From NCBI GenBank assembly GCA_946624065.1, contig CAMORT010000002.1, positions 10,542-74,541 of the forward strand: a DNA stretch of 64,000 nucleotides. The letters run 5' to 3'. Every line of letters starts with the position of its first letter. The stretch's first letter is position 1. Positions 5,000 to 31,443 of the stretch are shown in pieces. The DNA comes from an uncultured Bacteroidales bacterium (GTDB taxonomy: Bacteria; Bacteroidota; Bacteroidia; Bacteroidales; WCHB1-69). Below the pieces are notes generated by a model that was not told where the DNA came from, made no database searches, and saw nothing but the letters and a program-made list of their open reading frames with translations. The position numbers and the translations under genes were made by a program.

Positions 5000-5023
5000 A
5001 TCAGGTAATGGTTTTTGGAAGGG

Positions 5024-5031
5024 CAAAAATA
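5024..5031 (-). promoter_or_regulatory. Bacteroidota -7 promoter box (TATTTTTG) for the lipoprotein-tilS-sufS operon
   Basis: The minus strand reads TTGTATTTTTGCCC, which matches TAnnTTTG, 25 nt upstream of the ATG at 4999. Confidence 0.5.
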
Positions 5032-5085
5032 CAAAATGTTTTTTTTCGCACCTCGTTAAACTTTCCGCAGGTTGCTATATCCAAA

Positions 5086-5099: not shown

Positions 5100-5696
5100 A
5101 TGCAATCCTATCTTTTTCTACATCCCGAAACTATCACACCGCAACAACTGGAGCAGGAGATGTTGCCCTTGCTTCCCGCATGGCGGCGTGAACAGGTGTT
5201 GAACTATACACCCTTTTCCAGTAAAGTGCTTTGTGCCAAGTCTTTCCTGCTTCTCAAAGAAGGGTTGGAGAAAGATTTCGGTATCACTCAAGAGGTTTCT
5301 TTCGATTATTTGGAGCATGGAAAACCAGTATTGAAAGAGTACCCGCATATCCATTTCAACCTCAGTCATTGCCAAAACGGCATTCTTTGTGTGATAGATG
5401 AAAAAGGTCCTGTAGGGTGCGATATTGAGGCGAAAAACCGCAAAGTCAGGGAGTCCCTGTTGCTCAAATGCTGCAATGAACGGGAGCTTGAGGAAATCCA
5501 CAGCAACCCTTGTCCCGATCAGGCGTTTATGCGCCTTTGGACAAGAAAAGAAGCCGTATTGAAATACACCGGACAGGGACTTACGCAGGATTTGCCGTCT
5601 CTTCTTTCCGATAAGTTGTTGGAAACTGTTAAGTTAGAAACCTTTCAGGAGGAAGATGTCTTCTATTCTATTTGCCAGTCCAGACAAATGAATTAG
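5100..5696 (+). CDS. 4'-phosphopantetheinyl transferase (Sfp-type)
   Basis: 198 aa from MQSYLFLHPE. Motifs GCDIE and WTRKEAVLK (W-x-x-KEA-x-x-K). The upstream part of the ORF-track ORF (from 4920) overlaps the divergent gene and its promoter. Confidence 0.8.
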   Translation: MQSYLFLHPETITPQQLEQEMLPLLPAWRREQVLNYTPFSSKVLCAKSFLLLKEGLEKDFGITQEVSFDYLEHGKPVLKEYPHIHFNLSHCQNGILCVIDEKGPVGCDIEAKNRKVRESLLLKCCNERELEEIHSNPCPDQAFMRLWTRKEAVLKYTGQGLTQDLPSLLSDKLLETVKLETFQEEDVFYSICQSRQMN

Positions 5697-6514
5697 GCCT
5701 CCATGCTTTCCAGCATATCAATGACATTGTCCAAGTAATCCACTTCGGCATTTTCAATTTCCCCTTTGTCTGCCAACTGTGCCAGGTTGGGGTCAATGGG
5801 CATTTGGGCCAACAATTTGAGGTTGAATTCTTTAGCCACCTCTTCGGCGTGGCTTTGTCCGAACACTTGGATTTTCTCGTTGCAATGCGGGCATTTCACA
5901 TAACTGTAGTTCTCCACCAGTCCGAGCACCGGAATGTTCATCATACCAGCCATATTTACGGCTTTGCTCACAATGAGGGATACGAGGTCTTGCGGAGAAG
6001 TCACCATGATGATGCCATCCACAGCCATGGTTTGGAACACGGTCAACGGCACATCACCGGTTCCGGGAGGCATGTCCACCAACAGGAAATCAATATTGTC
6101 CCAAATCACTTCAGTCCAGAACTGTTTCACCATGCCAGCTACAAGCGGTCCGCGCCATATAACAGGCGTTTTCTCGTCGTTGGTCAGCAGGTTGGCGGAG
6201 ATGACTTGGATGCCTTTTTCCGTTTCCACGGGCAGCACGCCGTCTTCTGTACCGCTGATGATGGTGTGCAGGTTGAACATTTTAGGAATGGAGGGGCCGG
6301 TTATGTCGGCATCCAGGATGCCCACGCGGTATCCTTTGCGACGCAATTGCGCGGCTAAAAGTGCTGTAACAGAGCTCTTTCCAACGCCACCCTTGCCGCT
6401 CACAATACCGATCACTTTCTTGATATTGCTTTTGGGATTCGGTTTTTCCCGTAAATCTTTTTTCTCACAATTCGATTGACTGCAGTGTTCGCAGTCGTGA
6501 TTACATTCTGCCAT
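5693..6514 (-). CDS. apbC: Mrp/NBP35/ApbC-family Fe-S cluster carrier ATPase
   Basis: 273 aa. Deviant Walker A SGKGGVGKS, CPHC motif, and a Cys-rich N-terminus (CNHDCEHC). Confidence 0.9.
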   Translation of the reverse strand: MAECNHDCEHCSQSNCEKKDLREKPNPKSNIKKVIGIVSGKGGVGKSSVTALLAAQLRRKGYRVGILDADITGPSIPKMFNLHTIISGTEDGVLPVETEKGIQVISANLLTNDEKTPVIWRGPLVAGMVKQFWTEVIWDNIDFLLVDMPPGTGDVPLTVFQTMAVDGIIMVTSPQDLVSLIVSKAVNMAGMMNIPVLGLVENYSYVKCPHCNEKIQVFGQSHAEEVAKEFNLKLLAQMPIDPNLAQLADKGEIENAEVDYLDNVIDMLESMEA

Positions 6515-6551
6515 ATAGTTGTTGTTTCTTTATTTTTATAATTTTCAAAAA

Positions 6552-6673
6552 GGGCTGCAAAAATACAAAATACCTTGAAATGCAACACAGCACAGCCCAA
6601 TGCTCCCCATGTACCCATTTCAGCCATGCACCCTTGTACCCTGTACCCCTTTTACCTCTTTCACCCTGTACCC
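6552..6673 (-). repeat. Left copy of an inverted, promoter-bearing array of degenerate 8-9-bp GGT-words
   Basis: The minus strand reads GGGTACAG GGTGAAAGA GGTAAAAG GGGTACAG GGTACAAG GGTGCATGG ... GCATTTCAAGGTATTTTGTATTTTTGCAGCCC. The last part contains the -7 box TATTTTTG (plus coordinates 6558-6565) upstream of apbC. It is homologous to 8396-8528. Confidence 0.75.
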
Positions 6674-6682
6674 GTTCTTCTA

Positions 6683-8362
6683 TCATTGATTGTGTTTTCC
6701 GACCAACCGGTATGTCTTCATGCCGCCGATAAGGTTATAGACGGTGTTGAAACCGCTTTGCATGAGGATACGGGAAGCCACATAACCGCGGAGGCCCACC
6801 TCGCAGAAAACGATTGTCTTTTTGTCTTGAGGGATATCTTCCAGAAATTCGCGAAGTTCATCCACGGGATAATTTACGGCACCTTGGATGGTTCCGGTCT
6901 TAAATTCCTGAATCTCACGCACATCTATGAGGTTAAAATCCTCGTTACGGTCAATGATTTCATCCAATTCCGCCGCCTGTATCGGATTCATCAAATGGGC
7001 GTATATGTTCTCGGCCACCATGCCGGCGAACATGACTGGACTTTTGGCTGACCCGTAAGGCGGAGCGTAGGCGTGCTCGCTGTTCACCAGATCGAAAATC
7101 GTGCCCTGGTGCTTGAGCAGTAGGGAAATCACATCAATCTGTTTGTCAACATTTTGTGTACCCACTGCCTGTGCGCCGAGGATGCGTCCGTTTTCGGGAT
7201 CAAAATTGAGTTTGAGGTGAATGGGCTGCCCGCCGGGGTAGTAGGTGGCGTGCGGTGCCGGATGCGTGATGACAGTCTGGTAAGTCATGCCCAGTTTTCT
7301 CAAAGTGTTTTCCGAAAGGCCGGTGCAAGCCGCCGTCAAGTCGAAAATCTTGGCGATGGCGGTTGATACAGAGCCTTGATACTGAACGCTTTGCGGATAC
7401 ACCATGTTCATAGCCGCCGTGCGTGCCTGCAGGTTGGCGGGACCGGCCAAAAAATTGCAATAAGGTTTTCCCGTCACGGGATGCGGATATTCGATAGCGT
7501 CGCCCACAGCAAAGATGCACTCATCGGAGGTTTGCAGATATTCGTTCACCCAGATGCCGCCGGCTTCCCCAATTTTGAGTCCGCAGGCCTTTGCCAAAGT
7601 TGTGTTTGGGCGTACACCGATGCTGAGAATAGCCAGATTGCAAGGCAGTACGGTGTTGTCTTCGAGAACAACGGCCAGTTGGCCGTCATGATCCTTAAAG
7701 CAAGAGAGTCCGTTACCTGTAATTACATTAACTCCTTTATCTACAAGATGTTGTTGGACAATAGCTGCCATAGGCCAATCCAAAGGAGTAAGCACATGGT
7801 CCGCTTTTTCCACTACGGTTACTTGGTATCCGATTTTGCGCAAGTTTTCCGCCATTTCCAAACCGATGAAGCCGCCGCCAATAACGACAGCAGCAGCATT
7901 GTCGGTGAGATTGTCAATGGCTTGCATCTTGATTTTATCGCAGTCGGCCACATTGCGCAAGGTGAAAATGTTGGGCAGATCAATGCCTTGAACATGGGGT
8001 TTCACAGGTTCCGCACCCGGTGACAACAGCAGGATGTCGTAGTCTTCCTCGTACTCTTTGCCATTGCGCAAATTCTTCACGGATACGGTTTTACGGTCAC
8101 GATTGATGGCCGTCACCTCATTCAGGGTGCGCACATCCGCGTCATAGCGGTTGCCGAAAGAGACAGGGGTTTGTAAAAACAGTTTTTTCCGGTCCTCGAT
8201 CGTGTTCCCGATATAGTAGGGAAGGCCGCAATTGGCATAGGAGATGTATTCGCCTTTCTCAAACAGCACAATCTCGGCATCCTCGTTCAGTCGTTTCAGT
8301 CTGGCGGCAGCGGAAGCGCCTCCCGCCACACCACCGATGATTACATATTTCATAAATCGCAT
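6683..8362 (-). CDS. CoA-disulfide reductase / NAD(P)H persulfide reductase with a C-terminal rhodanese domain
   Basis: 559 aa. FAD motif VIIGGVAGGASAA, redox Cys motif SYANCGLPYY, and C-terminal rhodanese active-site loop CEVGLRG. An alternative start is MKYVIIGG at 8353. Confidence 0.85.
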   Translation of the reverse strand: MRFMKYVIIGGVAGGASAAARLKRLNEDAEIVLFEKGEYISYANCGLPYYIGNTIEDRKKLFLQTPVSFGNRYDADVRTLNEVTAINRDRKTVSVKNLRNGKEYEEDYDILLLSPGAEPVKPHVQGIDLPNIFTLRNVADCDKIKMQAIDNLTDNAAAVVIGGGFIGLEMAENLRKIGYQVTVVEKADHVLTPLDWPMAAIVQQHLVDKGVNVITGNGLSCFKDHDGQLAVVLEDNTVLPCNLAILSIGVRPNTTLAKACGLKIGEAGGIWVNEYLQTSDECIFAVGDAIEYPHPVTGKPYCNFLAGPANLQARTAAMNMVYPQSVQYQGSVSTAIAKIFDLTAACTGLSENTLRKLGMTYQTVITHPAPHATYYPGGQPIHLKLNFDPENGRILGAQAVGTQNVDKQIDVISLLLKHQGTIFDLVNSEHAYAPPYGSAKSPVMFAGMVAENIYAHLMNPIQAAELDEIIDRNEDFNLIDVREIQEFKTGTIQGAVNYPVDELREFLEDIPQDKKTIVFCEVGLRGYVASRILMQSGFNTVYNLIGGMKTYRLVGKHNQ

Positions 8363-8377
8363 ATTTTAAAAGAGCGA

Positions 8378-8385
8378 CAAAGATA
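8378..8385 (-). promoter_or_regulatory. -7 promoter box (TATCTTTG) for the CoADR-rhodanese gene
   Basis: The minus strand reads CCGTATCTTTGTCGC, 16 nt upstream of the ATG at 8362. Confidence 0.5.
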
Positions 8386-8395
8386 CGGTTTTTTA

Positions 8396-8528
8396 GGGTA
8401 CAAGAGGTACAAGGGGTGCATGGGGTGAAGTGGGTACAAAGGGTAAAAGGGTGAAGTGGGTACATGGGATGTATGAGTGCATTTGGTGGTTGTACCGCAT
8501 TTCATGGTATTTTAGTATTTTTGTACCC
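8396..8528 (+). repeat. Right copy of the inverted, promoter-bearing array of degenerate 9-bp GGT-words
   Basis: GGGTACAAG AGGTACAAG GGGTGCATG GGGTGAAGT GGGTACAAA GGGTAAAAG GGTGAAGT GGGTACATG GGATGTATG ... GCATTTCATGGTATTTTAGTATTTTTGTACCC. The -7 box TATTTTTG is at 8516-8523, 20 nt before the Nif3 ATG. Confidence 0.75.
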
Positions 8529-8542
8529 TAAAAACGAAAAAA

Positions 8543-9337
8543 ATGAAAATCAAAGAAGTAACGAACTATTTGGAGGAGCGGTTTCCGCTCTGTTTGCAGG
8601 AGGATTTTGACAATTGCGGTGTTCAGTGTGGCGATGTGGAGCAAGAAATCACCGGTGCGCTGGTTTGTTTTGAGATGTCGGAAAAGGTGATAGAGGAGGC
8701 GCTTGCCATGAATGCCAATTTGGTGATCTCGCACCATCCGTTGATGCTCAAGCGTGGCATCTGCAAGATAGAGCCCACCAACCGGGTAGGCAGTGTGATA
8801 TGCAAAGCACTGGGTCACAATATGGTACTCTATTCCATGCACACCAATATTGACAGTGCCGAGGGTGGCGGAAACGATGTGTTTGCTGAGAAACTGGATT
8901 TGCGGAATGTGCGTGTGCTGGTGCCTTCGGAGGCGGAGGGAATGGCTGAACATAACGGGCTTGGTCGTATTGGCACACTGTCCGAGCCTATGCCGGTAAT
9001 GGATTTTCTGCGCTATGTAAAGACCAAGATGAATCTTCAAGTGCTTCGTTATCATGGAGATACAAGCAAAATCATAAGTACGGTCGCGGTGTGCGGCGGC
9101 GGTGGCGCTTCCTTTATTGAGGACGCATTGCGCGCCGGAGCTGACGCGTATGTGTCGGGTGACATCAAATACCACGACTTCTTCAAGGCCGAAAACAGGA
9201 TGCTTATCGCCGATATCGGACACTATGAAGGTGAGTTTTTTATTAAAGAAATAATTTATAAGGCATTAAAAGAAAAATTTAGTAACTTTGCCGCCGCTAT
9301 TTCTAAAATGGACATTTTAGAAGTTTTGTATTTATAG
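8543..9337 (+). CDS. Nif3-like dinuclear metal centre protein (GTP cyclohydrolase 1 type 2 homologue)
   Basis: 264 aa. The N-terminus ...FPLCLQEDFDNCGVQCGD and the overall layout are typical of NIF3/YbgI. The usual zinc-ribbon partner gene follows. Confidence 0.85.
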   Translation: MKIKEVTNYLEERFPLCLQEDFDNCGVQCGDVEQEITGALVCFEMSEKVIEEALAMNANLVISHHPLMLKRGICKIEPTNRVGSVICKALGHNMVLYSMHTNIDSAEGGGNDVFAEKLDLRNVRVLVPSEAEGMAEHNGLGRIGTLSEPMPVMDFLRYVKTKMNLQVLRYHGDTSKIISTVAVCGGGGASFIEDALRAGADAYVSGDIKYHDFFKAENRMLIADIGHYEGEFFIKEIIYKALKEKFSNFAAAISKMDILEVLYL

Positions 9338-9367: not shown

Positions 9368-10444
9368 ATGGCAACAAAGAAAGCTACAGAAAAAGAGGTC
9401 ACGGAAACGGTAGAGGAACCCAAAACTAAGAAAACTACAGCCAAAAAAACCGCTGTGAAGAAAGAGGAACCCGTAAAAGAAGAGCCCGTAAAGAAGACCG
9501 CTGCCAAGAAAGAAGCAGTCAAGAAAACGGCTGCCCAAAAGGAAACAGCAAAGAAAGAGCCCGCTAAAAAAGCGGCCACTAAAGCCCAGAAGGCAGAGAA
9601 ACCTGTAGTTGAGGCATCCGCATTAGAAGATGATGTTACGGTAGAAAAAACCTCTGACGGCGTGGTTGAGGTGAAAAAGCACGAAATCAACCAAAATACG
9701 GCGGAGGAACTTTCCATTGAACAGAAGTTACTTTCCTTGTATAATCTCCAGCAAATCTGCACCAAAATTGATGACATCCGTATGATCCGCGGCGAATTGC
9801 CGGAGGAAATCCGCGACAACGAGGACGAATGCGAAGGCAAGCGCACCCGTATCGCCAAATTTCAGGATGAGATTGAGAACCTCAAAACGAAAATCTCTTC
9901 TGAAAACACGAAGAAAGAGGAATCTCTCGCCGCTATTAAGAAATATGAGGAGCAGCAGAACAATGTGCGCAACAACCGCGAATACGAATCTTTGAGCAAG
10001 GAGATTGAATACCAGAAATTGGAGATTCAGGTTTCTGAGAAACACAAAGTGAAATATGAAGCCGAAATTGAGGAAAAAGAAGCCCTGATCGAGGAAACGA
10101 AAGTGAAACTTGAGGAACTCGAAGAGGTTTTGAACCAAAAGAAGGCCGAGTTGGAGGTCATCGTAGCCGATACCGAGAAGGAGGAGGAAGAGTTGCTGGC
10201 TCAAGCGGAGGTGCTGAAATCCAAGGTTGACCAGCGTTTGCTCACCGCTTTCGAGCGTATCCGCAAAAGCGCGCACAACGGTCTGGCCATCGTGAAGATT
10301 GAACGTGACGCCTGTGGCGGTTGCTTCAGCAAGATTCCGCCCCAACGCCAACTCGACATTGCGTTGCACAAAAAGATTATCGTTTGTGAGGCCTGCGGCC
10401 GTATCTTCATTGACGACAAATTGGTTCATCGCCAAGAGCAATAA
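9368..10444 (+). CDS. COG1579-type coiled-coil / C4 zinc-ribbon protein with a Lys/Ala/Glu-rich N-terminal extension
   Basis: 358 aa. C-terminal CGGCFSKIPPQ...IIVCEACGRIF zinc ribbon, a long heptad-like coiled coil, and a first ~95 aa made of KKTAxKKE/EEPVK repeats. Confidence 0.8.
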   Translation: MATKKATEKEVTETVEEPKTKKTTAKKTAVKKEEPVKEEPVKKTAAKKEAVKKTAAQKETAKKEPAKKAATKAQKAEKPVVEASALEDDVTVEKTSDGVVEVKKHEINQNTAEELSIEQKLLSLYNLQQICTKIDDIRMIRGELPEEIRDNEDECEGKRTRIAKFQDEIENLKTKISSENTKKEESLAAIKKYEEQQNNVRNNREYESLSKEIEYQKLEIQVSEKHKVKYEAEIEEKEALIEETKVKLEELEEVLNQKKAELEVIVADTEKEEEELLAQAEVLKSKVDQRLLTAFERIRKSAHNGLAIVKIERDACGGCFSKIPPQRQLDIALHKKIIVCEACGRIFIDDKLVHRQEQ

Positions 10445-12020: not shown

Positions 12021-12028
12021 CAAAAATA
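12021..12028 (-). promoter_or_regulatory. -7 promoter box (TATTTTTG) for the 11954-10531 operon
   Basis: The minus strand reads TTTTGTATTTTTGGCC. It is divergent from the tdk promoter. Confidence 0.45.
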
Positions 12029-12050
12029 CAAAATTTAATCGGGCTGTCAA

Positions 12051-16904: not shown

Positions 16905-16936
16905 AAACTCTCTCCAATAGGGGAGAGTTTTTTTTT
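16905..16936 (+). terminator. Intrinsic terminator after rplI
   Basis: AAACTCTCTCC-AATA-GGGGAGAGTTT followed by a T-run. Confidence 0.75.
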
Positions 16937-16937
16937 G

Positions 16938-16945
16938 TATTTTTG
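16938..16945 (+). promoter_or_regulatory. -7 promoter box (TATTTTTG) for pyrH
   Basis: TTGTATTTTTGCGC. It overlaps the ORF-track Met at 16943 and so supports the start at 16964. Confidence 0.55.
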
Positions 16946-16963
16946 CGCTCAATAATAAACGAT

Positions 16964-23171: not shown

Positions 23172-23200
23172 GGGGAGAAGAGAGGTTTGTTCGTAAAATT

Positions 23201-23263
23201 TATAAAGTTTATAAAGTTTGTAACCTTTTAATCTTAAGAATCTTAAAAACCTTAAGAACAAAT
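23201..23263. repeat. 9-bp-phased degenerate tandem repeat (7 units)
   Basis: TATAAAGTT TATAAAGTT TGTAACCTT TTAATCTTA AGAATCTTA AAAACCTTA AGAACAAAT, between convergent 3' ends. Confidence 0.7.
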
Positions 23264-31336: not shown

Positions 31337-31344
31337 TATTTTTG
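31337..31344 (+). promoter_or_regulatory. -7 promoter box (TATTTTTG) for fabD
   Basis: ATGTATTTTTGCACCC. It implies a leader of about 95 nt that contains the word repeat below. Confidence 0.5.
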
Positions 31345-31382
31345 CACCCGATTTTATCACCACAACAAATCTTTAATCTCTC

Positions 31383-31436
31383 AACCTTATAAACTTTACC
31401 AACTTTACCAAATTTCACCTTTAACCTCATTCACCC
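31383..31436. repeat. 9-bp-phased degenerate tandem repeat (6 units) in the fabD leader
   Basis: AACCTTATA AACTTTACC AACTTTACC AAATTTCAC CTTTAACCT CATTCACCC. The reverse complement gives GGT-words (GGTAAAGTT x2, GGTGAAATT...) like those at 6552-6673 and 8396-8528. Confidence 0.7.
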
Positions 31437-31443
31437 TTTTATA

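Follow-up and report, generated by a model that had tools for sequence, protein, structure and literature searches.

Inverted copies of a G-rich word array around a CoADR-rhodanese gene of an uncultured Bacteroidales species: a probable old duplication of an inter-promoter spacer

The repeats of bacterial intergenic DNA include minisatellites with a variable number of tandem repeats (VNTRs) and the modular pneumococcal BOX, REP/REPIN, and Correia elements. A different kind of non-coding similarity is that of the putative mobile promoters, for which the commentary on Matus-Garcia, Nijveen and van Passel 2012 gives as a criterion at least 80% identity over at least 50 nt, upstream of non-paralogous genes (PMC3575422). 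In yeast, template switching between the arms of an imperfect inverted repeat expands the repeat, also near promoters (PMC13100816, PMC8604942); quasipalindrome mutagenesis in E. coli is a related template-switch case (PMC7202029), and DNA inversions take place at invertible promoters and regions in B. fragilis (PMC12068327). In the present work, we compare with these systems a locus found in a 64,000-nt stretch (hereafter, the window) of contig CAMORT010000002.1 from an uncultured Bacteroidales bacterium, where a CoADR-rhodanese gene (hereafter, CoADR) is bracketed by two related, G-rich arrays of short words: the left copy, on the side of apbC, and the right copy, on the side of nif3.

The explanation that we favour, with moderate confidence, is that the left copy represents an old inverted duplicate of the spacer between the CoADR and nif3 promoters, this spacer being a lineage-specific, slippage-prone, G-rich minisatellite. 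The first-pass annotation, made from the letters alone, had proposed that the minus strand of 6552-6673 and the plus strand of 8396-8528 are homologous, and the alignments agree with this, the two segments being collinear paralogues. MAFFT alignment of 6540-6690 (-) with 8380-8545 (+) gave a mean column identity of 78% with a few indels; a wider alignment of the pair has 94 matches, 40 mismatches, and 24 gap columns (70% ungapped identity), and in the best 50-column window of the copy alignment 33 columns are identical. A repeat search joined 6553-6676 to 8395-8528 by five inverted-repeat pairs of 17-30 nt with 70-94% complementarity; blastn-short between the copies retrieved only high-scoring segment pairs of 27, 17, and 16 nt, and the longest exact match is 12 nt. 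Phased words of 8-9 nt, likewise predicted, are present in both copies in the form GGGTnnAnn, with period-8/9 arrays reported by Tandem Repeats Finder (TRF) at 6630-6673 and 8395-8452, and the internal duplication of about 27 nt attributed to the right copy is real (26 nt, 8423-8448 / 8449-8474, 77%). Within the window, the resemblance is far above that of random promoter regions, a doubt raised by the first-pass annotation itself being thereby answered: when all 1,326 pairs of 170-nt upstream regions were compared, the apbC/nif3 pair scored 54, the next best 23, and the median pair 11.

The “almost identical tail” of the two copies deserves a distinction, in that its similarity stands and its specificity does not. 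The pattern proposed for it, GGTATTTTnGTATTTTTGyAsCC, largely corresponds to the promoter consensus of this genome, i.e. an A/T-rich (T-rich) stretch, TTTTG, TAnnTTTG, and C[AC][CG]CC, as obtained from the 23 window promoters with a TAnnTTTG box; TAnnTTTG is the sigma-ABfr -7 motif (PMC7366714). The tails of the pair, taken alone, score 23 versus 19 for the next promoter pair, and the 15-mer TATTTTGTATTTTTG was found at three other window sites (5023-5037, 12021-12034, and 16933-16946). What is specific to the pair is GCATTTCAWGG in the tail, together with the blocks AGAGGTAmAAGGGGT and TGAArTGGGTACATGGG, all of which occur in the same order in both copies. A sigma-70 scan returned 0 sites, such a scan being uninformative for Bacteroidota.

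Within the window, the array plus tail is matched by the two copies only. The tail pattern did not retrieve any sequence from 185,579 GTDB representative genomes, so the representative of this species either lacks the locus or is absent; from the JGI metagenomes that contain the species it retrieved this locus only, in two strains, apart from a fortuitous match within a coding sequence. These searches suggest that the unit of array and tail is a two-copy, locus-specific duplication.

The species was sampled through 15 assemblies, that is the window and 14 others, 97-100% identical to it, which were found by exact look-ups of the apbC and nif3 proteins and by a metagenome scan (labels such as L009 and L090 denote the compared relative and strain assemblies). 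All of them harbor the right array, with three length alleles: -18 nt (L100), 0, and +9 nt (L090, L095, and L097, with an extra GGTACAAGA). The left copy is present in 12 (haplotype A; alleles -17 nt in L001, -1 nt in L087, and 0); in the remaining three (L090, L095, and L097; haplotype B) its place is taken by a hairpin filler, GTTCAAAGTTCA..., within a 127-bp spacer containing GTTCAAAGTTCATGGTTCAAGG... and clearly related to the filler of L009, and the flanks are about 99-100% identical to the window on both sides. According to the base-level alignment of the two haplotypes, the outer junction falls inside the apbC -7 box (TAT/TTTTGCAGCCC in A vs. TAC/TTTTGCAGCCC in B, the slash marking the junction) and the inner one at the last sense codon and stop of CoADR (CAA TGA in A vs. 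GAA TAG in B). The left copy replaced about 85 nt rather than being inserted, and there is no target duplication. The adjoining stretch 6515-6562, with TTTTG of the apbC -7 box at 6558-6562 and the discriminator CAGCCC at 6552-6557, is the same in the haplotype B strains and is conserved in L009, L003, and L006. Judging from the presence of the right array in all the assemblies and of the left copy in a part of them, and from the kinship between the haplotype B and L009 fillers, the right array is older and fixed, and the left copy is a later replacement that is still segregating.

The closest CoADR homologues belong to uncultured rumen and gut Bacteroidales, and species with 88-90% CoADR protein identity differ from the window at 44-47% of third positions. 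The order nif3<-CoADR->apbC is kept in L003, L009, L102, and L103 (CoADR 88-89%), and the GGT arrays are absent from the first three. In the empty site of L009 and L102, CAAAGATACTGTTTTTTATTATTTTTG, the -7 boxes of CoADR and nif3 stand back to back (CAAAGATA-CTGTTTTTTAT-TATTTTTG), 11 nt apart in L009, whose nif3 promoter orthologue is TATTTTTGTACGCAAAA. On the 3' side of CoADR there is no filler in L003, where the stop codon is directly followed by the apbC -7 box; a hairpin composed of TTCAAAGTTCA words is found there in L009, and a GC-rich hairpin in L011. The fillers replaced by the left copy are themselves hairpins (z -3.2 in L009; a 12-bp stem in haplotype B). This synteny comparison, suggested by the first-pass annotation, bears on one of its alternatives, according to which an inverted duplication created a divergent promoter pair, into which CoADR was later inserted as a cassette. 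The inverted duplication of a promoter-upstream region is retained; the cassette is refuted, because congeners with the same gene order lack both arrays, CoADR having thus been present before either of them arose, and CoADR is also in place in the three strains without the left one. Nor did the arrays create the promoters: the -7 boxes of apbC and nif3 are ancestral, only the 5' portion of that of apbC having come with the array.

Other differences were observed around CoADR. In L103 (2357-2500; CoADR 88%), a different insert of about 66 nt, G-rich on the nif3-sense strand and with words such as GGGGAATAGGGGTT, lies between the -7 boxes at exactly the point of the right array; it represents either an insertion at a hot spot or a highly diverged homologue of the right array. 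In L006:9785-11952 and L007:9858-11841 (compare 6515-8542 of the window), CoADR and its promoter are inverted between the same outer genes (apbC<- CoADR-> nif3->). In L006, the inverted repeat on the two sides of CoADR (146 bp, 87%) derives from a GC-rich hairpin element that is unrelated and dispersed; L007 has one full copy of this element and a 20-nt remnant, and L020 and L023 have partial copies. A CoADR-rhodanese gene with 90% identity is found in L002:5001-6686 and L008:4600-6264 next to a gene with PAD_porph and a type IX secretion system (T9SS) tail and an S8 peptidase gene, with neither apbC nor nif3 nearby; the neighbourhood is therefore unstable even among close relatives. An inverted repeat flanking the gene in L037 was discarded as irrelevant, as it consists of two adjoining genes having a T9SS C-terminal domain in common. 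Both spacers around CoADR are rearrangement-prone hot spots, with fillers that differ by species and an inversion in one lineage.

These comparisons can be read as two steps. In the first one, a G-rich minisatellite of 9-nt GGGTnnAnn words evidently settled, in the ancestor of this rumen species, in the interval separating the -7 box of CoADR from that of nif3; its words belong to a clade-wide family of short-period arrays of G3 words, which are intergenic, vary by the gain and loss of words, and are not the same at orthologous sites. In the second one, an inverted copy of all the DNA separating the two promoters (the array and the promoter-upstream tail, a tract reaching from the nif3 -7 box roughly to that of CoADR) was evidently placed at the opposite end of CoADR. 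There it overwrote an ancestral, terminator-like hairpin filler that had separated the stop codon of CoADR from the -7 box of apbC. The only prior sequence common to both sites is that of the outward apbC and nif3 promoter cores, which form a short imperfect inverted repeat 1.9 kb apart. The copying probably proceeded through a microhomology-guided template switch, or else through an illegitimate recombination, that extended this inverted repeat inwards; such an extension would be the most economical mechanism, because the promoter cores already formed an imperfect inverted repeat and one junction lies in the core. The duplication is old compared with strain divergence, younger than speciation, and still polymorphic.

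As regards function, the arrays may be a near-neutral filler, with consequences for expression that would be side effects at most. In haplotype A, apbC would gain the -33/upstream context of nif3, and the loss of the hairpin after CoADR predicts a read-through from CoADR into apbC; no intrinsic terminator-like site was found in 6515-6685, downstream of CoADR. The formerly overlapping CoADR and nif3 promoters would have been moved about 130 bp apart. Among 11 strains, 8.2% of the sites of the right array are segregating vs. 5-17% at third codon positions, which is consistent with a weak constraint; the left copy has 1.5-4.5%, fewer than nearby third positions, these being small numbers.

Some points weigh against this reconstruction. 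The template switching would have to act over 1.9 kb, and the microhomology at the inner junction is weak (GATA). The few segregating sites of the left copy could reflect constraint rather than neutrality. Moreover, the copies are only about 70-78% identical, yet the presence/absence polymorphism has flanks of about 100% identity; strains differ by 1-6% at third positions and the copies have diverged by 22-30%. Furthermore, as regards CoADR (99.3%), the haplotype B strain L090 resembles the window more closely than the haplotype A strains L092 and L001 do. The reconstruction would thus require either a long-lived polymorphism with recombination of the flanks or a donor that was not found. The duplication and the A/B polymorphism seem to be older than the coalescence of the flanks, which would imply recombination within the species; gene conversion between the copies was also looked for, and the right tail of L001 reads CAAGG, as the left tail does, very few sites being available for this comparison. 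Lastly, the pattern search was exact, so diverged extra copies without the exact tail could exist. The features of the locus are listed in Table 1.

Table 1. Coordinates of the genes, promoter elements, and array copies in the window.
Feature	Position	Strand	Description
apbC/Mrp-type Fe-S carrier ATPase gene	5693..6514	-	273 aa; PF10609 at 2.5e-89; outer left neighbour
Ancestral apbC 5' untranslated region and 3' part of the apbC -7 box	6515..6562	-	Outside the duplicated segment
Left copy	6563..6688	-	Haplotype-A-specific; limits: base 3 of the apbC -7 box, and last sense codon and stop of CoADR
Left copy, tail	6573-6583		GCATTTCAAGG
Left copy, middle	6584-6605		Poorly conserved
Left copy, GGT-word array	6606-6673		
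CoADR-rhodanese gene	6683..8353	-	556 aa; Pfam Pyr_redox_2, Pyr_redox_dim, and Rhodanese (C-terminal)
CoADR -7 box	8378..8385	-	TATCTTTG
14-bp inverted repeat, left arm	8390..8403	+	TTTTTAGGGTACAA; contains the first array word; from the repeat search
Right copy	8396..8515	+	Lineage-specific insert between two formerly adjacent -7 boxes (CoADR, nif3)
Right copy, GGT-word array	8396-8468		
Canonical G-quadruplex motif	8413..8443	+	Four runs of at least three G, loops N1-7; the only one in the 64-kb window
Right copy, middle	8469-8496		
Right copy, pair-specific block	8497-8507		GCATTTCATGG
Right copy, promoter-upstream stretch	8508-8515		T-rich
nif3 -7 box and discriminator/leader	8516..8534	+	-7 box TATTTTTG (8516-8523), then TACCCTAAAAA
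nif3/DUF34 gene	8543..9337	+	264 aa; PF01784 at 1.8e-75; outer right neighbour
Third window array	31392..31441	-	GGTGAATGA, GGTGAAATT, GGTAAAGTT; A/T-richer; TRF; BLAST matches to both copies

The words are not confined to the two copies. A profile of the copies (nhmmer) retrieved arrays at L009:16482-16556 (nine words, in the spacer between PGK and a nucleotidyl-transferase gene) and at two L006 sites, and the orthologue of the PGK-side array, L007:5143-5188, has 4-5 words vs. 9 in L009. By means of a regular expression for at least three phased words, seven arrays were found in 1.52 Mb vs. none in shuffles, all of them intergenic and six in the closest clade. A fabD-like gene has the third window array in its 5' leader, and the word family is therefore not restricted to the CoADR locus. 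Word arrays are also found at convergent gene ends, and their orientation with respect to neighbouring genes is inconsistent. According to TRF and to the strain alleles, the units are arranged head to tail and vary in number between strains, as in VNTR minisatellites.

More in general, intergenic arrays of 7-9-nt words are common in the clade: they were observed in the window at 23194-23258 (9-nt words) and at 31392-31441, in L009:11690-11745, and, adjoining CoADR, in L037:11663-11760 and L026:12328-12357. Examples are TAAAGTTTA, AATCTTAAG, AACTTTACC, GAACTTTGA, TTAATCC, and CTATACC, often directly after stop codons or by terminators or promoters. In the literature searched, no description of the word-array family was found, and nothing relevant on a Bacteroidales repeat of this kind or on G-quadruplex elements in Bacteroides promoters. 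The idea that the arrays are C-rich Rho-utilisation sites, a mere idea, was set aside, their orientation with respect to the mRNAs being inconsistent between loci.

As for the promoters, their consensus reaches well past TAnnTTTG: on the upstream side there is a run of T closed by a G, and the discriminator is C-rich (also, e.g., at 31338-31350). Read in reverse complement, the array word GGGTRCAAR gives TTTG-YACCC, that is the 3' half of the -7 box plus the discriminator. In many divergent gene pairs, the two -7 boxes stand back to back at a distance of about 10-13 nt.

An alternative is that the words are binding-site arrays of a DNA-binding protein, either a regulator or a nucleoid-associated one, so that the duplication would place apbC and nif3 under common control; the first-pass annotation had thought of a regulator coordinating thiol/Fe-S genes. 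The phased, degenerate words with conserved positions GGT..A upstream of two outward promoters, the few segregating sites of the left copy, and the recurrence of the word family in several species would fit such a role. However, words of this family stand beside unrelated genes (the PGK/nucleotidyl-transferase spacer and the 5' untranslated region of the fabD-like gene) and convergent ends, on either strand; the right array is about as polymorphic as synonymous (third) positions, with whole words gained and lost; apbC has no array in haplotype B and in all congeners; and a 9-nt period is not in helical phase. Binding arrays are thus improbable in our opinion, and the thiol/Fe-S version, in particular, would hardly agree with the unrelated neighbours and with an apbC gene lacking the array.

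A broader proposal is given the same small weight, namely that the arrays form an undescribed family of G3-word arrays in the rumen Bacteroidales of this genus. The unit would be the reverse complement of the 3' half of the sigma-ABfr core promoter plus discriminator (TTTG-YACCC); the arrays would be seeded beside promoters through fold-back copying, expand by slippage, and at times be co-copied with promoter-upstream DNA, giving rise to inversion-prone genes flanked by inverted repeats, of which the CoADR of the sister species L006 and L007 would be a case; such arrays might have a real role, e.g. as G-quadruplex or protein-binding insulators between packed promoters.

The arrays might also modulate promoters or insulate transcription through a non-B DNA or RNA structure, i.e. 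the predicted G-quadruplex or, in the right copy, a long hairpin. The region 8413-8443 holds the sole canonical motif of the window (regular-expression scan on both strands) and its best 25-nt G4Hunter window reaches 1.72; upstream of each of the two outward promoters, the strand rich in G is the coding one; the fold of the right copy is much stronger than those of shuffled sequences (z -6.3 as RNA, -3.8 as DNA); and L103 has its different G-rich insert at the identical point. In contrast, the left copy has no canonical G-quadruplex motif (best G4Hunter window 1.36) and no significant fold (z -1.05 as RNA, -0.6 as DNA), the arrays are not oriented consistently with respect to the genes from one locus to another, both transcription starts are downstream of the right copy, which is therefore probably in neither mRNA, and the fold energy of the right copy comes largely from one 14-bp stem and G-U pairs. 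This possibility appears a little fainter than the binding of a protein. Rfam 15 families gave no match in 6515-6685 and 8354-8542, even at E<=10.

It could further be supposed that the inverted copies make CoADR invertible, recombination flipping the gene with its promoter in a phase-variable style. The inverted CoADR of L006 and L007, flanked in L006 by the long repeat of the hairpin element, would recall this behaviour. On the other hand, a single orientation was found in all 15 assemblies, which are consensus assemblies in which rare flips are possible; no recombinase Pfam family is present among the genes called within about 5 kb on either side; and a flip would separate CoADR from nothing that it needs, as its own promoter is carried along. 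An exact match of 12 nt and an identity of 70-78% are too low for efficient RecA recombination. Present-day RecA-driven flipping is unlikely because of this longest exact match and of the one orientation in all the assemblies, and we give the invertible gene as a whole little credit.

Even less convincing is the interpretation of the copies as ends or insertions of a miniature mobile element with an outward promoter, similar to a miniature inverted-repeat transposable element or to a composite transposon; termini of such an element had been among the alternatives of the first-pass annotation. The left copy is sharply present or absent, and L002 and L008 have a CoADR of 90% identity among other neighbours. 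A perfect 14-bp inverted repeat (8390-8403 / 8521-8534), which had not been mentioned before, closes the right copy, and this copy, relative to the L009 empty site, is surrounded by an imperfect 10-bp direct repeat (GGTTTTTTAG / GGTATTTTAG). Nevertheless, the 14-bp repeat is not found in the left copy, whose ends match at 5/7, and its right arm is the ancestral nif3 core promoter; no transposase is found nearby, and CoADR keeps its place in the strains that lack the left copy. Only two copies were retrieved, both at the CoADR locus and with no shared termini, and the left one replaced DNA without a target duplication, which makes transposition unlikely. Finally, it is next to impossible that the resemblance arose by chance or from the composition of two G-rich repeats beside consensus promoters, and this reading can be dismissed: the tails alone are barely above other promoter pairs, and the word family is present elsewhere, but the whole-region score exceeds by far the maximum of the 1,325 other pairs, the shared blocks are collinear, and the other arrays reach E values of at least 2e-5 by nhmmer, with the word part alone covered.

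The names apbC, CoADR-rhodanese, and Nif3-like given to the genes by the first-pass annotation were confirmed by Pfam, according to which the CoADR product is a CoA-disulfide-reductase-like flavoprotein with a rhodanese domain at the C-terminus; the apbC protein is identical in several strains. The longest ORF of CoADR starts at 8362 (559 aa), with an alternative ATG at 8353 (556 aa). Close homologues all have 556 aa and begin with MKYVIIGG, those of 556 aa being 99% identical, and since their length is 556 aa the start is probably the ATG at 8353. The exact look-up of the 559-aa protein gave no record, because of the choice of start codon, the 556-aa form being on record. An Rfam match to V_AS7, a Vibrio antisense RNA, lies at 8166-8334 (+) below threshold (74 bits vs. 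a gathering value of 90, E 3e-13), antisense to the conserved 5' part of the CoADR coding sequence, and it most likely reflects the conserved coding sequence which the Vibrio RNA overlaps. A coding reading of the left copy was also considered: a 61-aa ORF (6501-6686, -), whose GGT-nnn-nnn pattern resembles Gly-X-Y, has an ATGA overlap on the CoADR stop, spans the whole left copy, and overlaps the apbC start with its end. It is almost certainly spurious and was rejected because the 17-nt deletion (L001) and the 1-nt deletion (L087) break the frame.

Within about 5 kb, the neighbours are acpS, tilS, greA, tdk, pta, and the gene of a zinc-ribbon protein. The latter, 3' of nif3 at 9368-10444 (+), codes for a repetitive, Lys/Ala/Glu-rich, histone-H1-like (HC2) N-terminus and a C4 zinc ribbon (PF02591), and has 15- and 30-nt tandem repeats at 9461-9556; the called length of the protein varies among strains (mostly 358 aa, 220 aa in L089 and L090).

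The locus represents a clean natural case of promoter-upstream rewiring without mobile elements, in which three states are preserved (ancestral, right array only, and both copies), two of which segregate within one species. The A/B polymorphism is thus a natural experiment on the effect of the filler on apbC transcription and on CoADR read-through. The locus also points to an undescribed, clade-specific class of unstable G-rich intergenic word arrays in uncultured rumen Bacteroidales, and it bears no sign of a new molecular machine.

As in the putative mobile promoters (PMC3575422), homologous non-coding DNA lies upstream of two unrelated, non-paralogous genes (apbC, PF10609, and nif3, PF01784), with no insertion sequence and with a possible rewiring; unlike them, the copies fall below the identity required (33/50 in the best window, 70% overall), the core promoters are ancestral at both genes, and the copies are not dispersed but stand 1.9 kb apart, inverted around one gene. 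The template-switch cases are similar in that a short imperfect inverted repeat would have grown inwards by arm-to-arm copying, with one junction in the shared core. They differ in that the documented spans are tens of bases, whereas the arms are here 1.9 kb apart, and the 22-30% divergence of the copies allows no base-by-base reconstruction, so that for this locus the mechanism is only proposed. With respect to the Bacteroides invertible regions, inverted repeats flank a promoter-containing segment in both cases, and a sister lineage has the segment inverted; however, no second orientation was found in the 15 assemblies and no recombinase is adjacent, and instead of short, conserved sites for a recombinase there are long, degenerate repeats with an identity of 70-78%. 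The families of intergenic repeats share with the arrays short, degenerate, head-to-tail intergenic units whose number varies among strains and which occur at several loci in relatives. Unlike REP, BOX, and Correia elements, the arrays have no conserved terminal modules or hairpin unit, and, unlike the known families, their word sequence varies by locus and the unit is only 8-9 nt long. On the whole, the finding is a new and fairly ordinary example of known processes, i.e. the duplication of promoter regions and the instability of intergenic minisatellites, in a clade that has been little studied.

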